This document shows, piece after piece, positions 4,589 through 44,300 of a DNA stretch of 64,000 bases. Both the position numbers and the translations under genes were made by a program. The notes beneath the pieces were generated by a model. It saw only the letters and a program-made list of their open reading frames with translations, did not search any database and was not told the DNA's origin. Within the stretch, counting starts at the first letter, position 1. The number at the start of each line of letters is the position of its first letter. Source of the DNA: an uncultured Candidatus Saccharibacteria bacterium (GTDB lineage Bacteria; Patescibacteriota; Dojkabacteria; J137); assembly GCA_965230975.1 (NCBI GenBank), contig OZ246402.1, forward strand, positions 800,859-864,858, given 5' to 3'.

Positions 4589-6322
4589 ATGGATGGGTCA
4601 CTACTTTCATTAAGAGATGTTTCAATTATACTAATAACTGGCTCAATTGCCGGCTATATAAGTTTAAGATTAAAGCTCCCAACTATAATAGGCTACATTT
4701 TGGCTGGTGTTTTGCTTTCAATAATACTGCCTTTATTAAACATTACTGGTGGTTTAAATTCTAATTTTGTAGGGCAAATTGCCAGTTTTGGGGTAGCCTT
4801 ACTATTGTTTGCTGCTGGTATAGAATTTTCGGTAAATAATATTAAGAGTATTAAAAACCTGGTTATATTTGGAGTATTGGCTCAAACATTGCTAACTATA
4901 GTATTTGGAATTATATTTATGCCGCTTTTTGGGTTAAGCTCTTACGAAAGTTTATTTGTTGGAGTAGTTGCCGCAACCAGTTCAACAGCATTCGTTTTAA
5001 AAATGCTAGAACAAAACGAAGAGATATCATCTACTGCAAGCAATATAATGATTGGATGGTTAATTGTGCAAGATATTCTTGGAATTGCTTTGTTTTTAAT
5101 ATTAAAAAGTTTTGCTCCAGGTAATACTATAAATATTGTTACACTTGCAGACCCAATTATAAAAAGTCTTTTACTTATAGTTTTAACGTTTACTATTGGT
5201 AAAGTAATAGTACCACCAATTTTCAGAGAAATTTCAAAAACAAGATCCCAAGAATTGTTATTAGTTTCTGTAATTGCTTTAAGTATTGGATTTGCTTTAC
5301 TATCAGAGGTTTTAGGGGTAAGTTATACTCTTGGAGCATTCCTTACTGGTTTAGCATTATCGGGTACTTTTTTAAAGCACGAAATTTTTACAGAAATAAA
5401 ACCCTTAAGAGATTTATTTTCAATGGTGTTTTTTGTTTCAATTGGATCATTATTAAATGTAAGCAGCATATTCAATAATATCCCTATTATTCTTGCGATA
5501 GTAGTTATTGTACTTGGCTTTAAAGTAGTAACTATATTCTTAGTAAATATATTCTTTAAAACCCACCCTAAAAACTCTGCAAAAGTAGCACTTGGGATTT
5601 CGCAAATTGGGGAGTTTGCATTCTTAGCAATTACAATTGCACAGCATAACAATTGGATCAATATAAATTTTTACTCTGTAATTTTGGTTTCCACAGTTAT
5701 TAGCATGACCCTAACTCCTATTTTATATAGCAATTACAGCACTTTGTTTAAGATTTCAGAAAAGATATTTAGCTCTTACTTTCCAGGTTTATATAGAAAA
5801 TACTATCTATCTAAGTTAAAGAGCTCTCAAAAAAGTGAGCTTTCAAATCATGTAATAATTGTTGGTTATGGAAAAGTTGGGAAATATGTTGCCGAGGCTT
5901 TGAATATTTCTAAAGAGGATTATGTTGTAATTGAATTAGATGCAAATTTAATAGAAAAGGCTATTAGCGATAATCACAAGGTCATATTAGGAGATGCTAC
6001 AAACATAGATACTTTAAAAGAGGCAAAAATAGAATTTGCAAAAGCTTTGGTATTGGCATTACCTGAAAGTAATCATGAATTGTTACAAAAACTTATTTTA
6101 GATGTTAAAGATTTAAATAAAGAGATAGAAATAATAGTAAGATCTAGTAAAGTTGTAAATGATACAGATAACATATCTAGCGTTATAGAACCCGAATTTG
6201 AAGCAGCAGTTAGAATCATTTCTAAGATGGAGGGTATTATTAGCGAAAATAAATATAGTTTAGTAAGAAAAATAAGAGCAATAAGGCGAAAAGAGATTAA
6301 AGAAATACTTGAGAATAATTGA
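4589..6322 (+). CDS. cation:proton antiporter (CPA2/Kef-type) with C-terminal TrkA-N/RCK domain
   Basis: Roughly a dozen hydrophobic helices followed by the Rossmann motif VIIVGYGKVGKYV. Confidence 0.8.
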   Translation: MDGSLLSLRDVSIILITGSIAGYISLRLKLPTIIGYILAGVLLSIILPLLNITGGLNSNFVGQIASFGVALLLFAAGIEFSVNNIKSIKNLVIFGVLAQTLLTIVFGIIFMPLFGLSSYESLFVGVVAATSSTAFVLKMLEQNEEISSTASNIMIGWLIVQDILGIALFLILKSFAPGNTINIVTLADPIIKSLLLIVLTFTIGKVIVPPIFREISKTRSQELLLVSVIALSIGFALLSEVLGVSYTLGAFLTGLALSGTFLKHEIFTEIKPLRDLFSMVFFVSIGSLLNVSSIFNNIPIILAIVVIVLGFKVVTIFLVNIFFKTHPKNSAKVALGISQIGEFAFLAITIAQHNNWININFYSVILVSTVISMTLTPILYSNYSTLFKISEKIFSSYFPGLYRKYYLSKLKSSQKSELSNHVIIVGYGKVGKYVAEALNISKEDYVVIELDANLIEKAISDNHKVILGDATNIDTLKEAKIEFAKALVLALPESNHELLQKLILDVKDLNKEIEIIVRSSKVVNDTDNISSVIEPEFEAAVRIISKMEGIISENKYSLVRKIRAIRRKEIKEILENN

Positions 6323-6406
6323 TTTTCATCAAAGAAAGTCATATAATTCACCTGCTCTTAAAAATATCCAGATCTCTTTACTAATAACGTATTGAGTCAA
6401 AGTTAC

Positions 6407-6857
6407 GAGTTGGTAGCTCAGTGGTAGAGCAGTCCCGTTTTACGGGATTGGTCGGGTAAGTTGTAAAATGTTTCTGGGTGTACAAAATCATAGATTGTGT
6501 ACTAACCAAAAGCAAATTACTTTTTGCTTTCGGGGGTTGGTAGCTCAGTGGTAGAGCAGTCCCGTTTACGGGATTGGTCGGTCAAGTTCATTTATAAAGT
6601 TATGGGTTGGTAGCTCAGTGGTAGAGCAGTCCCGTTTTACGGGATTGGTCGGGTAAGTTGTAAAATGTTTCTGGGTGTACAAAATCATAGATTGTGTACT
6701 AACCAAAAGCAAATTACTTTTTGCTTTCGGGGGTTGGTAGCTCAGTGGTAGAGCAGTCCCGTTTTACGGGATTGGTCGGGTAAGTTGTAAAATGTTTCTG
6801 GGTGTACAAAATCATAGATTGTGTACTAACCAAAAGCAAATTACTTTTTGCTTTCGG
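6407..6857 (+). repeat. tandem array of four truncated tRNA-Lys-like 5' parts, each followed by a conserved spacer
   Basis: Units start at 6407, 6534, 6604 and 6731. Three are 127 nt (50 nt of tRNA positions 1 to ~52 ending GGTCGGG, then an identical 77-nt spacer). Unit 2 is a 70-nt deletion variant. Confidence 0.9.
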
Positions 6858-6929
6858 GGGTTGGTAGCTCAGTGGTAGAGCAGTGGCCTTTTAAGCCATT
6901 GGTCGGGGGTTCGAATCCCCCCCAACTCA
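6858..6929 (+). tRNA. tRNA-Lys (anticodon UUU), no encoded CCA
   Basis: Hand-folded cloverleaf: acceptor GGGTTGG/CCAACTC, D arm GCTC-AGTGGTA-GAGC, anticodon arm GTGGC-CTTTTAA-GCCAT, T arm GGGGG-TTCGAAT-CCCCC. Confidence 0.9.
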
Positions 6930-6951
6930 CTTTTCTTCATTTCAAAATCTC

Positions 6952-7206
6952 ATGTATTACGTTTATATTCTTTATTCTAAGTCTATAGATAAATATTATA
7001 TAGGTTATACCTCAAACCTTGAACTTAGAATAGCTCAACATAATTCTGGATTTCATAAATCAAAGTTTACAAGAAAAAACTCATCTGACTGGGATTTAGT
7101 TTATCAAGAAAAATTTAATTCTAAATCTAAAGCCATCATTAGGGAAAAGGAGATCAAATCTTTTAAAAGTAGGTCTTACATTCAATCACTAATAAAGAAT
7201 CTGTAG
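6952..7206 (+). CDS. GIY-YIG nuclease family protein (small, URI-domain only)
   Basis: YVYILYS (GIY), KYYIGYT (YIG), conserved Arg in LELRIAQHN, Glu in IREKEIK. The size of 84 aa is typical of stand-alone GIY-YIG proteins. Confidence 0.85.
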   Translation: MYYVYILYSKSIDKYYIGYTSNLELRIAQHNSGFHKSKFTRKNSSDWDLVYQEKFNSKSKAIIREKEIKSFKSRSYIQSLIKNL

Positions 7207-7257
7207 AGAAGTCCCGTTTTACGGGATTGGTCGGGGGTTCGAATCCCCCCCAACTCA
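7203..7257 (+). pseudogene. 3' fragment of a tRNA-Lys-like gene (D-arm 3' strand to discriminator)
   Basis: GTAGAGAAGTCCCGTTTTACGGGATTGGTCGGGGGTTCGAATCCCCCCCAACTCA. It has the same variant anticodon arm as the upstream 5' fragments and lacks the acceptor 5' strand. Confidence 0.85.
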
Positions 7258-7358
7258 CTTATAGTCAATTCTCCTTTAGTAATTTAAAAACAGCTTAGTG
7301 TAACTTCAAATCTACAAAAATAAAGTTTAGAATAGATCTATAACTTTTAGATCTCGTT

Positions 7359-9051: not shown

Positions 9052-9119
9052 ACTATACAAAATATTGAGAAATACCTTCTATAGGCTTATTTTAAGTGAT
9101 ATAATTCGTGGCATGTTTG

Positions 9120-35312: not shown

Positions 35313-38300
35313 ATGCTATCAGTTAAGCATTCTTTTCTAACTTCATATAAAAATAATAAAAATAGATTCCACGTTATTATTGGTTTGGTTTTAGTTTTAA
35401 GCATTGCAGGATTAGTTTACGCAGCTACATCTACTAATAATATTGCTACCTCTTCTACAAATACAGCTACCACTGTTTCTACATTAAGAAGGGTAGTAAG
35501 AACAAGCGATGGAACATTACATGCATTTGTACAACTAGGTACAGAGACAATGACCTGTGGTGGAACACCAACAAATGGATTACTCTGGACTTATTCAACA
35601 GATAACGGGACAAATTGGACATGTGGTGGTCAGGTTTCTAACAATGTTAGTATTCTATTTCACGCTTCTGCCGTAGTAGATTCCTCAGATAATATTTATA
35701 TAGTATATTCACCTACAAATAGCGGAGCAAACAGCACTTACGATGCATATTATAGAAAACTAACAAAAGGGTCTGGGTCTACATGGACTTTAGAAAACGC
35801 ACAAACAGTATTAGATGCATCTGCATCTACTGGATTTAACTACGCAACCATAGAAATTGAAGGGACCGATAGACTCTGGGTTGCAGCAAGAAGGTTTGAT
35901 GGCACCAACTATCAAATATCAACTTACTATTCAGACGGGCTCACTACAAACCCTACCTGGGAAACATCTGAAAATGTATTAAGTGTAGCCGGTAATAGCG
36001 CCTCTTACCACATACCTGCAATGTTTAGATTCGGAAATAAAATAGGTATTGTTTATAACTCGCAACTGCCTACTGCAGTTATGAGATGGAGGTTTAGAGA
36101 AGATGGAGAATCTTTAACAAAATGGGCTTCTGAGACAATTATTAACACATTAACAGCTACTGGGCCAACATTTTCTGTAATTTCTGATAGTAATGCAAAT
36201 GCATATTTTGCTTTAAGTAGTACTACTAATGTTTTCTTTAACTATTGGAATGGTAGCGTTTGGTCTCAAAACGCAATAGTTAGTACGACTGCGCTTTCAA
36301 ACAGCTATGTATCTTTAACTACAAACGGTTCTAGCGTCAAAGTAATATATGGTGAATCTACAAATTTAGCTGCTGGTATTACAGGTCTAGGTATTTATAA
36401 ACTATCTTACAAAAATGGATATTTACCATTCTCCTCATCTGAATTTGATGTTACTGCTAGCCCTGTGGTTAGCTACCAAACCACATTTGATAAATATTGG
36501 AGTTACAATGGCACAACTTATACAAACGATACAACAGATGTTGCAAACGCAACTAGTGCAGATACACAAATGACATCTGGGATTGGGAGTATCGCATACT
36601 TTGGAAAACTTGAAAAATTTGACTCTATAGCTTGGGATATTTCTACAAGTGGAGTAACTGGTACTATAGTTTGGGAGTACTGGAACGGGAGTTCATGGAC
36701 AGCCTTAACTTTAAGAAACTCTTCTAGTCCTAACTTTACAGCAGATGGTTGGATAAACTTTGTAGACCCTGCAAACTGGGCAACAACTCAAGTTAATGCA
36801 GAAGGCACACCTTATTATTATGTTAGAGCTAGAACTAGTGTTGCATTTACAACTCAACCTGTAGGTGTTCAAATACTACCAATAACAGGCGTTTTTGGTG
36901 CTAACTTTATACAAAACAGTGTTAGTGGTAGTAGCTATGGTATTTGGACAGAAAACACTGCAAGCAGATTTGTTATTAAACAAGGATCTCTTAGCTATCC
37001 AGCAGTTACTGTAAATAATGCAACAAACACAAATGCAGTAAATAACTTGATAGGATACTCAACACTTGCTACAGCTACTCACCCAAGTACAATGAAAAAT
37101 ATATTACAAACATCTGACGGTACATTTCATGCCTTTATACAAGCTGGGAATAATGTTGCCTGTAATGACACGACTTATAATGGAGGGCTAGTATGGACAT
37201 ATTCTACAGATGAAGGAGTAAATTGGGATTGTGGTGCAGAACTTATGAGCGAAATTGTTAATGTATCTTATGCTTCTGCAGTAAAAGATAGTTCTGATAA
37301 TATTTATGTAGTTTATTCTACTTTAAATAATGCAGGTGGAGTTACAAATGACACCTACTATACAAAGCTAACAAAAGGAGTTGGATCAACCTGGAGCGTA
37401 GGCACTCCAGACTTAGTTTTAGATGCAAGTGGAACAACAGCATATACATACTCAACAGTTGAGATAGAAAATAATACAAGATTATGGCTTGCCACAAGGT
37501 ACTTTGACGGGGTTTATTATCAAATCAATACTTATTATTCATCAGACCTTTCGGGTGCTCCAAACTGGAGTGTTTCGAAAGCCCCATTAACAGCTCTTAC
37601 CGCAACTAGCACATATCTGTACCCTGCAATCGTTAGGTTTGGAAGTAATATTGGTGTAGCTTATAATGCTCAAACTAATAATCAAAGGTGGCGAGTTAGA
37701 TCTGATTCTGACCCGTTGAGCTCTTGGGGTACTGAAAACATTGTAAGCACAGAAGCAGTAGCTAGCCCAAGATTCTCAATTATATCTGATGGAAGTGATA
37801 ATGTTTACTATGGGTCCTTGGTAACATGTTCAATTTATACAACCTTTTGGAACGGTAGAACATGGGCTCCAACAACTACAGTAATAAACAACAACTGTAC
37901 TCAGGTAGCATCTGGCACTTACTTTAGCTTGTCTACTGATGGTACAAATTTAAGGTTATTTTATGGAGAGCCATTAAGTACTAGTACTGGAATTCCCCAA
38001 CATAGACTAGTTTATAGAACAGGTGTACCTCCATATAGTGCAAACAGCTTTGATTTAACTGCAACACAGGTAAATACAATGCATTCAACATTTACTAAGT
38101 ATTGGAGTTATGTTTCAAGTGTTTACCTAAACGACACTACAGATGCCGCAAGTGTGACAAGCGCAGATACTCAAATGCTAACAAACGCAGGAGATATTGC
38201 ATTTTTTGGATCCAGTTCAAAATTTGATACTGTTGCATGGGATGTTTCAACATTAGGAACTGTTGGATCCGTAATTTGGGAATATTGGAATGGCAGTGCT

Positions 38301-41300
38301 TGGGTAGAACTAACAGATTTTACATCAGTATCTAACCCATCTTTTTACAATGATGGATATATTAACTTTGTTACGCCAGTAAATTGGGCTACAACACAAG
38401 TTAATGCAGAAGGCACACCTTACTATTATGTTAGGGCTAGAGTAACAAGGTCATTTAGTGTAGCACCAGTAGGCATTCAGTTTACAACAATGCCATTAGT
38501 TTCTTGGGCAACTGCACTCCCGAATACAAATGCTAATAAAGTTGGTGCTATGTGGACTGAAAACTCAGTTTCATCTATGCCTATAAAATTTCAAAATATT
38601 AGCTTGGGTAGCAATTACACTAATTATAACGCTACGCAAACAGATGTTATTCCAACTTTAGGTTATTCAGCTAATGTCACTTCGCTGGGGCCAACAACTA
38701 TGGAAAGCTATGTTAAAACTTCAGATGGAACATACCACTCATTTGTGCAAGCTGGAAACAAGCAATTTTGTAACGATGCATCATCTACAGTAAACAATGT
38801 TGGTTTAATGTGGGTTTATTCTACCAATGGGTCGGATTGGAATTGTGGAGGTCAATTATCCGGTGATGTTACTAATTTTATGTATGCTTCCGCTACAACC
38901 GACTCTGCAGGAAACATTTATGTAGTTTATTCAGTAACCGCAAATGGAGCAAACATCGCATATAGCACTTATTATAGAAAACTAACAAAAGGGGTTGGTG
39001 CAACATGGACAATAGGAAATGCAAGTCAGGTTCTAAATGCTTCTGCAGGTGGTATTGCTTATTCATACTCTGTTATTAAAGCAGAATCAGATTCAAGATT
39101 GTGGTTAGCAACGCGTTACTTTGATGGTACAAACTATCAAATATCTGCTTACTATACTGATACTTTAGTTGATGATCCTACATGGAACCTTTCAACAATG
39201 AGTCTAAGTGTTGCGACTCCAAGCACAACCGATTTCTTTCCATCAATTGTAAAGTTTGGAAACAATATTGGAATAATTTATGCATCCCAATTCCCTGCAT
39301 CTTATCAAATGTGGAGATACAGAAGTAATTCTCAAGACCCTACTGTTTGGTCATCTCAAATGGTAGTTAATACAGAAAACTTATCTGTACCTGCTTATTC
39401 CACAGTGTCTGATAATGCAGGAAATGTTTATACAGTTTCAGTTAATGGTGCTAATGTTGTATTTAACTATTGGAATGGTAACGTTTGGTCACCCTCTGTA
39501 AACTTATCAACAACCGCCTCTACTGCTTATGCAGGTATTATTACAGATGGTTACAACGTTTGGGTTAACTATTTAGATACAACTGGGCTTATCTCATCTG
39601 GACTTGGATTAAGAAAATTTAGCTACAGAAAAGGAATACCTCCTTACACAGCTACAGAGTGGGAGGCTGCTACAAATTTGGTGACTAATCATGGATTTTT
39701 TGATAAATACTGGAGTTACTTTAGCTCTGTTTACTTAAATGACACAACCGATGTTACTTCTGTTGCAACAGCAGATACTCAAATGCTAAGAAATATAGGA
39801 GATATTGCATATTTTGGGAAATTAGAAAAATTTGATGCAGTATCTTGGGTTTTAAGCACAGCAGGTGTTGGGGGGAATGTTGTTTGGGAATACTATAATG
39901 GGAGTGTTTGGGCACCAATAGAGGATTTTGAGCATAACTTGAATCCTAATTTTATTGGTGCAACAACTGGAATTATATCTTTCAGTCCTGCAAGTGATTG
40001 GCAAACGACCACGGTTAACAGCGAACCCACACCTTATTACTATGTTAGAGCAAGGGTAATTGCAAATTACTCAACAACCCCTGTTGCATCACAAATTGTT
40101 ACAATTCCAAACTTAAATAGCTCTGCATTGCTACCTACTTTAGATGGAAACAATATGTCAGGGCTTTGGACAGAAAACTCGGTAGCTCCTATTCGAATAA
40201 GAAAATACGATATTACATTATCTACAGAAACACCTAACACAGCATCTGCATCTGATTTAATGCCTACCTTAAACTCGGCAACTTGGTATTCTTCAACAAA
40301 CCTAACTAATCAATCATCTACTCAAAGAAGTATTGTAAAAACATCTGATGGCACTATCCATTCATTTGTTTACACTGCTAACTCGCCAGCTTGTGGTGGC
40401 AACTCAACAAGCCAGGCAAATTCAGGTGGGTTAGTTTGGATGACCTCAAGTGATGAAGGTGTAACTTGGGATTGTAAATCTACTTTGTGGTCTGACCCGA
40501 CAATGGGGTACTACGCATCTGCAACAGTAGACAGCAACGACAATATTTATGTTGTTTATTCTCAAGCTGCAAATGGTGGGAGTGTTAATTACGATATTTA
40601 TTATAGAATGATTACAAAAACTGGACCTGGGACTTGGAGCATGGAACCTCAACAAATACTACTTGATTCAATTACTGCTAATACTGGGTACACTTATGCA
40701 ACAATAGAGGTAGAAGGTTCTAATAGACTTTGGGTAGCATTTAGAAATTATAATAATCCAAACTATCAAGTCTCTGTATATTATTCTAGCGCACTAACTT
40801 CTGAACCAGTTTGGACACTTTCAAGCTTAGCATTAGAAAGTGCAGGCACATCTACAAGTTACCATTATCCAACCATTGTACGTTATGGAAGTAATATAGG
40901 AGTTATTTATAGCAATGAAATTGGAGGTGTTTCTACCAGATGGAGATCTAGAGCCGACACAGATGGTTTAACAACATGGGGAACAGAAGCAACAATTATG
41001 GCATCTGCTTCAACAGGGCCATTATTTTCTGCAGTTGGTAGTGATGCTGGTGAAATCTATTTAAGTGTTGGCTCTGCTGCAACTGTTTACTTTACATCAT
41101 GGAATGGAAGTTCTTGGTCAAGTAGAGCAACATTATCTTCAACTGCTATTACAAATGGATTTACAAATGTAAGTATGGTTGGAACAACTGCATATGTTTA
41201 CTATACCAATGCAAGTGGTTTGAGTGCCGGATTACCAGGTAATAGAAAATTAGTATATAAAAGAGGTGTTGCCCCATACTTAGATGCAAACTTTGATGTA

Positions 41301-44300
41301 TCAGAAACAAGTATTGTTTCTTACCACTCACTATTTGATAAAGTTTGGAGTTATGTATCTTCAGTTTACGCAAACGAAACTACAGATGCTTCAAATACAA
41401 CAAGTGCAGATACTCAAATGGTAAGCCAAATAGGGGATATTATATATTTAGGTAAAACTTCTAAATTTGATAATATCTCTTGGGACTTATCTACATTGGG
41501 TACAAATGGAATAATAAGATGGGAGTATTATAATGGTGCTTCTTGGAAAGCAATAAATAAATATTTAGGTGTATTAACTCCATCATTCACAGGAGATGGT
41601 GCAATTTCATTTGTTCCGGCTCAAGACTGGGCACAAACAACAATTAACGGAGAGGGAACATCTTATTATTACGTAAGAGGGGTAGTAACAAGAGCATTTA
41701 GCGTTGTACCAATTGGAGTTCAGTTTGCAAGTATTCCATTACTGTCTCAATTTACAAGCATTGCTAAAGCTAACAACATTTACTACTCATGGACAGAAAA
41801 CTCTGCATCTAACTACAGAGTTAGATTTTCAGCATACATATTTAATGTTGCTCCAAACACACCAACCTCATTGGGCGCTAGTGCAGTAGTAGATGGATCT
41901 CCAACAAAAAACAATCAACCCGAATTTATATTTACAACAAGTGATCTTAACTTAGGAGATACTTCAACATATACTATTCAAATTGATAACGATAGCGATT
42001 TTTCATCTCCAGTAGTAGATTACACTTCTGCATTTACATTAAATGGAGTTAGAGGCTTTGCAGTAGGGCAAGCAGTTGGTAGTGGAATTTACACTACAGG
42101 TTCGCAAGGGCAAACATTGACAGACGGAGATTATTACTGGAGAGTTAAAGCAAGTGACTTAGCAGGTTTAGAATCCGGGTTTGCAGTAGCAAACAGCGGA
42201 AGTGTTGCGTTTAAAATAGATACTGCAAACCCGGCAACAAATGCAAGCAGTATTTTAATGTTAAAAACCGCTGGTGGACCTGGAGTTAACTCTAATGGTT
42301 GGACAAATAACGCATCTCCTTATTTTTCTTGGACACCTGGTGTAGATAACGTAGGTGGTTCTGGAATTTTTGGTTATTGTGTTTATTTAGGAACAGATTC
42401 TAATGGTAATCCAGAAACTAGCAAAGGCTTGTTAGGAACATCACCTGCAACTTTGGTAGATTCAACTTGTCAATTTATAACTACAACTACATCAATTGAT
42501 TTTACCAACGCTAACTTAAAAGGTGGAACATGGCTTACAACATCTTCTAGCCCATATTATATAAACATTAAAGCTATAGATATTGTTGGTAATATATATA
42601 CAACTTCAAGTGCGCAATTTCAGTTTAGGTTTGATAACGTTGCACCAACTAACGTAGCTTTCATAAGCACCGCTGGTGGAACATTTAATAATGTAGCAGA
42701 TATGAGCTTTTCGTGGCCAACAGCAGGTTTAAACACATCATCAGATGCAACATCTGGAGTATTGGGTTGGCAATATGCAATTAATATAACAAGTGGTAGT
42801 TGGCAAGGCACAACAGATAGTACAGAACTAGACGAGAGATATATACCAACAAGTGATAGCAATTACAGCTTAACAAATGTTCAAGATGCAGGTTCTATTG
42901 TGACTGGTAGCAATACAATTTACTTTAGAACAATTGACCAGGCGGGGAATTATTCATCTGAGGGCACAGTTAGAACAGGTGTATTGCAGTTTGGTGGAGC
43001 TGCACCAATGTTCCCACCACTTTCTCAAGTAACAGTAACACCATCCGTGGGAGTATCAAATAATTACGAATTATCTTGGCCAGAAGCAATGTCTGGATCT
43101 GGTGGAGATATTTCAAATTATTACTATATGATAAATATAACGCCACCAACGGTTTTAAGTACTATAACAACAAACCCTGCAACATTTATAAACAACAACT
43201 TAAGTTTAGGAGTTACTGCAAGATCTTTACCAAACGTAAATAGAGGAACGAATACCGTATATGTTGTAGCAGTAGACGAAGATGGACATTATTCACCATC
43301 TAATTATATTACCGGAACATTTGAATTGAATTCAACAGAGCCGGACAATCCAACACAACTTACAGCATCAGATGCATCTATAAAATCTGAAAACAGATGG
43401 ATGGTTACATTAACATGGATTAAACCAGCATACGAAGGTGCAGGAAACTTAACATACTTGGTACATAGATCTTTAGATGGAGTAAGCTTTAGCTTGGTAG
43501 GTACAACTACAAGTTTGTCTTATGTAGATAACCCAGATGAAAGTAGACTATATTATTACAAAGTTTATGCAAAAGATGGAGCTAACCAAACATCGTCCGG
43601 TACAAATGCTGTTTCTGAAACGCCAACAGGTCGGTGGACAGTACCTCCTACACTAGACAATGAGCCAGAAGTTACAAATATTACTACTAAGAAAGCAAAA
43701 ATATCTTGGACAACATCAAGAAAAGCAGATTCTAAAGTAGCTTATGGTACAGAAAGTGGAGTTTACTTCCCGGTTGAACCTAGTACATCTGATTTAACCC
43801 CGGCACACGAAATAAATTTAAATGGTTTACAACCAAGTACTCAATACTATTATATTGCAAGATGGACAGACGAAGATGGTAATACAGGTTCGTCAACAGA
43901 ATATAGCTTTGTAACACAACCTGCCCCAAGTGTTAAAGATGTAGTTGCAAGTAACGTTGGTTTAACATCTGCTATATTAAGATACACAACCTTAGGTGCA
44001 AGCAAAGTAAGGATATTTTATGGAACAACAACATCTTTTGGAGGTTTGAAAGAGGTTTCTACTTCTACTAGCGAAACAGTTCAAACTACAGAAATAACAG
44101 GATTGTTAGATGGTACAAAATACTATTATAGAATAGATACTTTAGATGAAGAATCAGCTCAATACGAAGGAACAATTTTAGACTTTACAACACTACCTAG
44201 ACCAAAAATTAATAATGTTAGAGTACAGCAAGTTAGAAATACCGCACAGTCAACTGTTTTAATAAGCTGGCAAACAAATACGGAAGTATCTTCTATAGTT

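Follow-up and report, generated by a model that had tools for sequence, protein, structure and literature searches.

The tRNA-Lys locus

The window analysed here is a stretch of 64,000 nucleotides (nt) of contig OZ246402.1 (positions 800,859 to 864,858, forward strand), assembled from an uncultured Candidatus Saccharibacteria bacterium. At window positions 6407 to 7257 there are six tandem segments derived from tRNA-Lys, accompanied by a small gene for a GIY-YIG nuclease. The sole functional member is an intact tRNA-Lys(UUU) gene. The four segments upstream of it, units A1 to A4, are truncated at the 3′ end, and the segment overlapping the end of the nuclease gene, T*, is truncated at the 5′ end. 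A preliminary description of the window, made from the sequence alone, had reported a four-member array of broken units starting at 6407, 6534, 6604 and 6731. Direct reading and repeat analysis returned the same starts and four broken units, but T* (7203 to 7257) and the intact tRNA gene extend the family to six. The features of the locus are listed below.

6319 to 6347, plus strand: putative promoter-like site, TTGATT-17-TATAAT, upstream of the array, with 10 of 12 consensus matches.
6407 to 6456, plus strand: unit A1, tRNA-Lys positions 1 to ~52, with the anticodon arm replaced by the hairpin TCCCGTTTTACGGGA at 6433 to 6447.
6457 to 6533, plus strand: spacer S, copy 1, 77 nt, with two hairpins and homology to the tRNA-Lys 5′ leader in relatives.
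6534 to 6581, plus strand: unit A2, with the hairpin TCCCGTTTACGGGA at 6560 to 6573, which lacks one T.
6582 to 6603, plus strand: short spacer s, 22 nt, TCAAGTTCATTTATAAAGTTAT, made up of a T-loop remnant, GTTC, and a copy of the native 5′ flank.
6604 to 6653, plus strand: unit A3, with the hairpin at 6630 to 6644.
6654 to 6730, plus strand: spacer S, copy 2, 77 nt, identical to copies 1 and 3.
6731 to 6780, plus strand: unit A4, with the hairpin at 6757 to 6771.
6781 to 6857, plus strand: spacer S, copy 3, 77 nt, directly abutting the intact tRNA gene.
6858 to 6930, plus strand: intact tRNA-Lys(UUU) gene, called by ARAGORN and scoring 77.2 bits with the Rfam tRNA model.
6931 to 6951, plus strand: tRNA 3′ flank and short 5′ untranslated region (UTR) of the nuclease gene, CTTTTCTTCATTTCAAAATCTC, the last 12 nt of which are retained in a deletion allele (L089, see below).
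6952 to 7206, plus strand: GIY-YIG nuclease gene, 84 amino acids (aa), of the UPF0213/YazA-YhbQ type, with its stop codon inside the pseudo-tRNA T*.
7203 to 7257, plus strand: T*, from the D-stem 3′ strand to the tRNA 3′ end, with the hairpin TCCCGTTTTACGGGA at 7212 to 7226.
7258 to 7280, plus strand: second copy of the tRNA 3′ flank, CTTATAGTCAATTCTCCTTTAGT, marking the end of the segment that is absent from L089.

Each upstream unit includes the 5′ acceptor strand, the D arm, a hairpin of 15–17 nt, the variable region and the start of the T stem; the tRNA-like sequence ends at the point described previously (position ~52), so that units A1 to A4 have neither the 3′ half of the T arm nor the 3′ strand of the acceptor stem. 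The 5′ end of A1 is GAGTTGG, and all other copies have GGGTTGG. The preliminary description as a tRNA gene truncated in the T arm is correct for the 3′ end, but it overlooked the anticodon arm, which is replaced by a TCCCG...CGGGA hairpin: the sequence at this place is GTCCCGTTTTACGGGAT in the units and GTGGCCTTTTAAGCCAT in the intact tRNA-Lys. The anticodon stem of the intact gene, GTGGC/GCCAT, is the native one and is identical in a relative that lacks the nuclease gene (L091). In T*, the anticodon arm is again replaced by the hairpin, and the T arm and acceptor 3′ strand are identical to those of the intact tRNA-Lys.

Units A1 to A4 are not functional tRNA genes. None was called by ARAGORN, the Rfam tRNA model gave only 21.7–23.8 bits (gathering score 29), and the predicted fold consists of a D-like stem and the hairpin only, in agreement with the earlier view that no unit can form a cloverleaf. 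Provided that the putative promoter at 6319 to 6347 is used, the array would lie within the transcribed leader of the tRNA.

Tandem Repeats Finder and a repeat finder reported periods of 127 nt and 197 nt, and the 22-nt spacer s is the junction of the 197-nt higher-order repeat. The spacers had been described as identical and 77 nt long. This holds for the three beginning at 6457, 6654 and 6781, but unit A2, which does lack one T in its hairpin, is followed by the different, 22-nt spacer. The latter is not a simple internal deletion of the former, as had been assumed, but the spacer type of a second form of the array found in a related strain (L216). The unit and the spacer had no matches in shuffled sequence (100 shuffles), and the window unit had no exact match in the JGI metagenomes. 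The array is not a clustered regularly interspaced short palindromic repeat (CRISPR) locus, as previously concluded: the spacers are not unique, three being identical and the fourth a copy of the native flank, and there is no cas-like open reading frame (ORF) beside the array.

In Rfam 15, tRNA was the sole family matched, both in this region and in 20 related loci. A match to HPnc0260 at 6900 to 7027 was below threshold and driven by the tRNA T arm, and was rejected. Three near-identical antisense ORFs of 41–48 aa (MLLVSTQSMILYTQKHFTTYPTNPVKRDCSTTELPT...) at 6381 to 6839 on the minus strand are a by-product of the repeats and are not evidence for a gene. Elsewhere in the window, the G+C content is 0.37 at 36001 to 44000 and ~0.31 in the rest.

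The GIY-YIG nuclease

The 84-aa protein matches PF01541 over residues 1–70 (E=1e-15) and is a catalytic domain alone. In an alignment of the window protein with 26 homologues, residues Y5, Y16, G18, R26, H30 and E65 are invariant in all 27 sequences, which is consistent with an active enzyme. The protein belongs to the UPF0213/YazA-YhbQ group (COG2827), which is annotated as a family of unknown function, and the only relatives with solved structures are the structural-genomics UPF0213 proteins PDB 1zg2 and 1ywl. There was no match to the protein in NCBIfam or PHROGs, and PADLOC returned only two marginal matches, to PDC-S14 (E=0.003–0.009). In the literature on UPF0213/COG2827, no report of a linkage to tRNA genes, of pseudo-tRNA repeats or of the hairpin motif was found.

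Alleles of the locus in sister strains and relatives

Six sequences from sister strains and relatives represent the same locus, and their structures are as follows.

L001, short-read metagenome contig with 3x coverage: one unit, in the order A1, S, tRNA, nuclease, T*.
L216, metagenome-assembled genome (MAG) whose nuclease is at least 90 % identical: short spacers separate two or more units, which repeat every 70 nt and are followed by tRNA, nuclease and T*.
L215, Logan contig: agrees with the window sequence beginning at T*.
L214, Logan contig: degenerate 66-nt ORF stump, start codon ATG changed to ATT, fused downstream at the microhomology ACYTCAAA.
L089, 97 % identical downstream: the 12-nt 5′ UTR of the cassette is the sole remnant.
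L091, neighbouring dehydrogenase 73 % identical: tRNA-Lys(UUU) with the stem GTGGC/GCCAT, followed directly by the dehydrogenase gene, with no cassette.

The number of upstream units differs between strains, being one in L001, at least two in L216 and four in the window. Relative to the spacer types found in L001 and L216, the order A1-S-A2-s-A3-S-A4-S in the window is a mosaic of both. In L216, the tRNA and T* are each followed by the same 11 nt, TTTTCTTCATT. Presence of the cassette is also polymorphic. It is absent from L091 at the same tRNA-SDR junction, and L089 and L214 are independent deletion remnants. L089 was considered as a virgin empty site, but it retains the 12-nt 5′ UTR of the cassette and is therefore a deletion remnant.

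This comparison of orthologous loci identifies the intact tRNA-Lys(UUU) gene as the native one, and the cassette as an insertion that duplicated tRNA positions ~13/18 to 76 together with 9–11 nt of the 3′ flank. It also indicates rapid turnover of the array as well as of the nuclease gene. This pattern of invasion and decay is as expected of a selfish endonuclease gene.

The tRNA gene in L089 (2207 to 2279) is itself a chimera. The 5′ two thirds resemble tRNA-Lys(CUU), the T arm and the 3′ strand of the acceptor stem correspond to tRNA-Lys(UUU), and there is a T6-C67 mismatch, which suggests recombination between tRNA-Lys genes. The genes upstream also differ; histone deacetylase-like, tRNA_edit and DUF5665 genes are found in L089, and a Kef-type exchanger gene is found in the window instead.

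Recurrence in other bacteria

A scan of genomes, one per species, using an alignment of nine sequences as the query found 436 relatives, and the loci of 80 of these were fetched. Most of the fetched loci are from Bacteroidota, Ignavibacteria/Melioribacteraceae and Cloacimonadota, with a few from Patescibacteria, and the best match in the scan was to a Candidatus Dojkabacteria MAG. A scan of 2.9 million viral contigs yielded a single relative.

For approximately 50 of 86 nuclease ORFs, an intact tRNA gene lies 9–70 nt upstream on the same strand, the homologues being 46–74 % identical. The tRNA types found beside nuclease genes are Asp, Ala, Val, Lys, Arg, Met, Pro and Phe. The remaining ORFs are mostly at contig ends or in tandem arrays of the nuclease gene. 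In the first homologues examined, the gene directly follows an intact tRNA-Asp or tRNA-Val gene and is itself followed by a partial, hairpin-bearing copy of that tRNA, and one of the Val loci also includes an upstream broken unit of the window type. Downstream partial copies match the same tRNA perfectly over 30–36 nt to its 3′ end, while the 5′ part of most of them has decayed to differing extents. Upstream copies break 6–16 nt past the hairpin, usually at tRNA positions 49–60, in the T stem or loop. The GIY-YIG gene, which the preliminary description noted as adjacent and possibly involved, is relevant to the array; its homologues and the hairpin recur together beside tRNA genes.

Hairpin units were found upstream in 16 of 38 loci, compared with 2 of 34 control windows. 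The array is not an isolated case; arrays of one to nine such units occur in unrelated bacteria, including nine units in L058, five in L027 and three in each of L049 and L025. The L058 array is in a 1.17-Mb contig, and its layout at a tRNA-Lys(UUU) gene is as in the window. Comparable arrays are present in L028 (CP129491, which is titled a complete genome). The nuclease cassette can also be repeated; L080 includes six tandem cassettes, and tandem cassettes are also found in L033 and L049. No published description of this arrangement of tRNA, GIY-YIG gene and hairpin was found. The window locus is one instance of a widespread tRNA-linked GIY-YIG cassette with hairpin-substituted pseudo-tRNA repeats that is, as far as we could find, undescribed.

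Further features seen in the related loci are listed below. The tandem arrays of GIY-YIG gene and pseudo-tRNA have three to six copies with periods of 355–429 nt, and several of the copies are degenerate. The full-length tRNA-like genes have the TCCCG hairpin as their anticodon arm and some lie within ordinary tRNA clusters; ARAGORN names them tRNA-???, tRNA-Ile(aat), tRNA-Stop(tta), tRNA-Cys or tRNA-Ser, and they probably give rise to spurious tRNA annotations.

L080, 2501 to 4933; L033, 2501 to 3544; L049, 1747 to 3240; L024, 1436 to 3482: tandem nuclease arrays.
L104, 3461 to 3538; L116, 201 to 277; L146, 946 to 1022; L105, 7846 to 7920; L051, 2746 to 2825; L062, 2760 to 2839; L057, 2735 to 2815: full-length hairpin tRNA-like genes.
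L110, 2938 to 3277; L109, 1606 to 2109 (minus strand): arrays of broken tRNA-Thr units before tRNA-Thr(UGU), in which just the loop of the anticodon arm and its 5′ strand have given way to the hairpin.
L043, 118 to 607 (Saccharibacteria MAG): upstream of the intact tRNA, a broken tRNA-Met unit runs at its T-loop break straight into the nuclease ORF, and an internally deleted copy of this ORF forms the following spacer.
L004, 4089 to 6255: TIR-domain gene, SUKH-4 gene and IS110-family transposase gene downstream of a tRNA-Val cassette, a variable, defence-like region.

The signature hairpin

Every non-functional copy at the window locus has TCCCG-loop-CGGGA in place of the anticodon arm. A strict form of this motif occurs 161 times in 357 kb of GIY-YIG loci, compared with 1.05 times in shuffled sequence. 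In the window it occurs five times (0.03 expected), and all five matches in the 64 kb are confined to the array locus, which is not the scatter of repetitive extragenic palindromes or miniature inverted-repeat transposable elements. Elsewhere the hairpin also sits inside tRNA-derived copies, where it precisely substitutes for the D loop, the anticodon arm or the T loop. In the Asp cases examined first it is in the T loop, and in the Val case it is in the anticodon arm.

The TCCCG/CGGGA core is invariant, apart from variants such as TTCCG and, in L043, CTCCG/CGGAG. Beyond the core the stem is extended by covarying pairs (A-T, C-G, G-C and T-A at position 6), changes in the inner stem affecting both partners of a pair, and the loop is free to vary. 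Perfect palindromes account for only 6 of the 96 hairpins, and many hairpins have an odd length. We therefore conclude that the motif is a stem-loop and not a duplex site with symmetry. Candidate roles are a recognition or anchoring site for the nuclease, or a block that would split the homology between copies.

The possibility that the stem of the units came from an 'old' tRNA-Lys allele, since displaced, was rejected. The same TCCCG stem is found at Asp, Val and Ala loci, sometimes in the T or D loop, and the 'new' stem is already present in the cassette-free L091. The TCCCG hairpin is not an ancestral tRNA-Lys stem.

Spacers and general arrangement

Spacer S folds into two hairpins. One is the AAAGCAAA/TTTGCTTT hairpin, which was noted previously and is real, and the second lies upstream of it. 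A unit together with spacer S folds better than shuffled sequence (z=−4.3). A module homologous to S immediately precedes tRNA-Lys(CUU) in L090, inserted between the promoter region and the tRNA; the window's own tRNA-Lys(CUU) does not have it (compare window 9090 to 9119). The module is also directly 5′ of the chimeric tRNA-Lys in L089. Compensatory changes are seen in its second stem, AAAGCAA/TTGCTTT versus AAATTCAAC/GTTGAATTT, and the module may constitute an independent leader element, mobile or regulatory in nature. Its positions are as follows.

L090, 2850 to 2962; L089, 2120 to 2206; window, 6457 to 6533: two-hairpin module of ~75–100 nt, 5′ of tRNA-Lys.

Other loci have other spacers. 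In L049, L058 and L027, the spacer is the tRNA's own 5′ flank, and in L043 it is the nuclease ORF or an internally deleted remnant of it. Microhomologies are found at junctions, for example GTTC(TT) in L049 and GTTTAAAAA in L004. The general arrangement is one of tandem tRNA-derived segments, exactly one of which is intact while the others are disabled by the hairpin. Nuclease ORFs fill some of the spacers, and their 3′ ends run into the next tRNA-derived copy.

Origin of the arrays

We favour, with moderate confidence, the interpretation that the tRNA-Lys(UUU) locus has been colonised by a small selfish GIY-YIG cassette, whose direct repeats expand by break-stimulated unequal recombination. 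By settling next to an intact tRNA gene, the cassette, made up of the nuclease ORF, the hairpin-bearing pseudo-tRNA and a duplicate of the tRNA 3′ flank, would create direct repeats of tRNA sequence. The nuclease would then break DNA at or near tRNA-derived sequence, and repair by unequal homologous recombination, slippage or microhomology would duplicate and delete segments, yielding arrays of truncated units upstream and arrays of cassettes downstream. Selection would keep exactly one intact tRNA, and the nuclease gene would in time decay by deletion. Unequal crossing-over, one of the explanations offered in the preliminary description, is accepted as a contributor.

Several observations weigh against this interpretation. 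When pseudo-tRNAs were sampled in metagenomes by DNA pattern alone, taking those with at least 1 kb on both sides, a GIY-YIG ORF was present within 1.5 kb in only 5 of 15. The arrays upstream of tRNA-Thr in L110 (five units) and L109 (eight units) likewise have no GIY-YIG ORF within 1.5 kb. Arrays therefore do not need the gene in cis. Such cases may reflect a nuclease that acts in trans, loss of its gene of the kind seen in L089 and L214, or passive propagation of the repeats. The T* of the Lys type retains an intact T loop, and a simple model of T-loop cleavage with immunity conferred by the hairpin is thus insufficient. The interpretation also leaves unexplained how the constant TCCCG core comes to be in place once the cassette has moved to another type of tRNA. 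A test for strand-specific (RNA-level) selection gave 22 G-U versus 14 A-C deviations in the hairpin, in a set dominated by chance matches. A test for extra conservation of the hairpin core, at most suggestive, found 3 of 120 core columns variable within arrays, compared with 5–8 % in neighbouring classes, with two of the arrays counted on both strands. Finally, there is no separate DNA-binding domain in the 84-aa protein, of which the Pfam domain covers residues 1–70, and the family is not known to have any activity.

The shortage of nearby nuclease genes could point instead to ordinary repeat dynamics, with slippage and unequal crossing-over amplifying hairpin units and the GIY-YIG gene a mere frequent passenger in tRNA-proximal spacers. 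Palindromes are known hotspots for both processes, direct repeats suffice for expansion, microhomology is present at junctions, and about two thirds of the independently sampled arrays have no GIY-YIG ORF within 1.5 kb. However, a nuclease acting in trans or lost since would leave the same picture, hairpin units and nuclease genes occur together far more often than expected by chance, whichever of the two is taken as the starting point, and passive amplification leaves unexplained both the occurrence of the same TCCCG/CGGGA core beside nuclease genes in several phyla and the presence of the hairpin in essentially every extra tRNA copy. We consider this explanation rather unlikely. That the hairpin-substituted tRNA pieces are functional, either as a recognition or guide module for the nuclease or as leader RNAs that regulate expression of the tRNA or the nuclease, appears unlikely. 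The arms are neatly replaced with the cloverleaf layout kept, the hairpin core is invariant with paired changes in the inner stem and a free loop, ARAGORN calls full-length pseudo-tRNAs as odd tRNAs in L051, L057, L062, L105 and L104, a putative promoter-like site precedes the window array, and unit plus S folds with the z of −4.3 given above. Yet the decayed 5′ parts of most downstream copies are incompatible with a general tRNA-like fold, the upstream units lack the T arm and the acceptor 3′ strand, and the G-U and A-C counts carry no clear strand signal. The decoy or tRNA-half-like RNAs proposed in the preliminary description gained no support from this sequence-based analysis. A specific form of the functional reading, which we regard as quite improbable, is that the hairpin pseudo-tRNAs are the targeting module of a minimal nuclease: the TCCCG hairpin would bind or position the enzyme, tRNA-derived DNA or its transcript would pair with the homologous tRNA gene, and the guide would be rebuilt for each new tRNA type. 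If so, the cassettes would represent a novel class of mobile element, in which a GIY-YIG nuclease is directed in a way not seen before.

Two further explanations are very unlikely. Partial tRNA duplications are the classic footprint of integrase-type elements (PMC9897764), and the units could in principle be attachment-site scars of repeated integration and excision. This is contradicted by the anatomy of the locus, and was rejected. The surroundings contain no integrase gene, successive repeats are separated by just 22 nt, 77 nt or the 255-nt nuclease ORF, the copies are inexact and bear a foreign hairpin, and the same design is found at many tRNA types beside a GIY-YIG gene. It is equally hard to credit that the array is an assembly artefact expanding a single unit, even though the 3x-coverage contig of the same locus (L001) has one unit and contigs of relatives often end at these repeats (L002, L090, L091 and L215). 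The window units differ from one another (GAGTTGG in A1, the 1-nt loop deletion and other spacer of A2, and the 197-nt higher-order repeat), the short-spacer form is independently present in L216, and comparable arrays are found in the complete genome CP129491 (L028) and the 1.17-Mb contig L058.

Comparison with known systems

tRNA genes are classic landing sites of large mobile elements. Under the selfish-cassette interpretation, the parasite here would be much smaller, ~330 nt comprising one 84-aa nuclease and a disabled tRNA copy. The cassette is found beside tRNA genes in at least four bacterial phyla, and would reshape them into pseudo-tRNA arrays. This would give the UPF0213/COG2827 family, to which the encoded protein belongs by sequence (PF01541), a testable function, and would account for odd or false calls in tRNA annotation such as 'tRNA-Stop', 'tRNA-Cys(aca)' and 'tRNA-???'.

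Integrative elements leave tRNA gene fragments at attL and attR (PMC9897764), and partial tRNA copies beside an intact tRNA gene are a point of likeness. However, the window locus has no integrase ORF and no kilobase-scale element between the tRNA copies; the intervening DNA is tens to hundreds of bases rather than kilobases, and the copies are modified by the hairpin and tandemly amplified. Another parallel in layout is a free-standing endonuclease ORF flanked by an intact and a partial copy of the host gene. In fungal mitochondria, for example at Allomyces atp6, a mobile endonuclease ORF is inserted together with a duplicated 3′ end of the host gene, such that intact and partial copies flank the ORF. 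The host genes there encode proteins, their partial copies have no substituted hairpin, and upstream arrays are absent.

In PMC2330249, SegB is presented as a free-standing GIY-YIG homing endonuclease encoded in the tRNA gene cluster of T4/T6. It cuts tRNA genes at RAWTSGAAC (PMC13096335), the reverse complement of which corresponds, by our reading, to the T-loop box. Tandem amplification of the tRNA-segB segment depends on the nuclease, UvsX and UvsY, and the amplified state collapses without selection (PMC13096335). The locus described here likewise combines a GIY-YIG gene among tRNA genes with unstable tandem repeats of a tRNA-proximal segment next to the nuclease gene, as seen in the four units of the window, the one and at least two units of its sister strains and the tandem cassettes of L080, L033 and L049. 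There are also differences. The phage protein SegB is longer and includes a DNA-binding part. The present protein shares the catalytic domain of Seg-like homing endonucleases but consists of that domain alone, at 84 aa, with no DNA-binding domain, and the family is chromosomal (436 relatives in the genome scan compared with one in viral contigs). SegB amplicons carry full-length, functional tRNA genes, whereas the copies here are truncated, with a hairpin in place of an arm. Dependence on the nuclease and on recombination has been shown for SegB itself only, and would apply here by analogy.

The constant hairpin that replaces tRNA arms is a feature without a known counterpart, and is the part most likely to hold new biology. 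In other respects, the locus would work most like a free-standing homing endonuclease with segmental amplification of the SegB type, which would carry nuclease-driven amplification at tRNA genes from phages to bacterial chromosomes.

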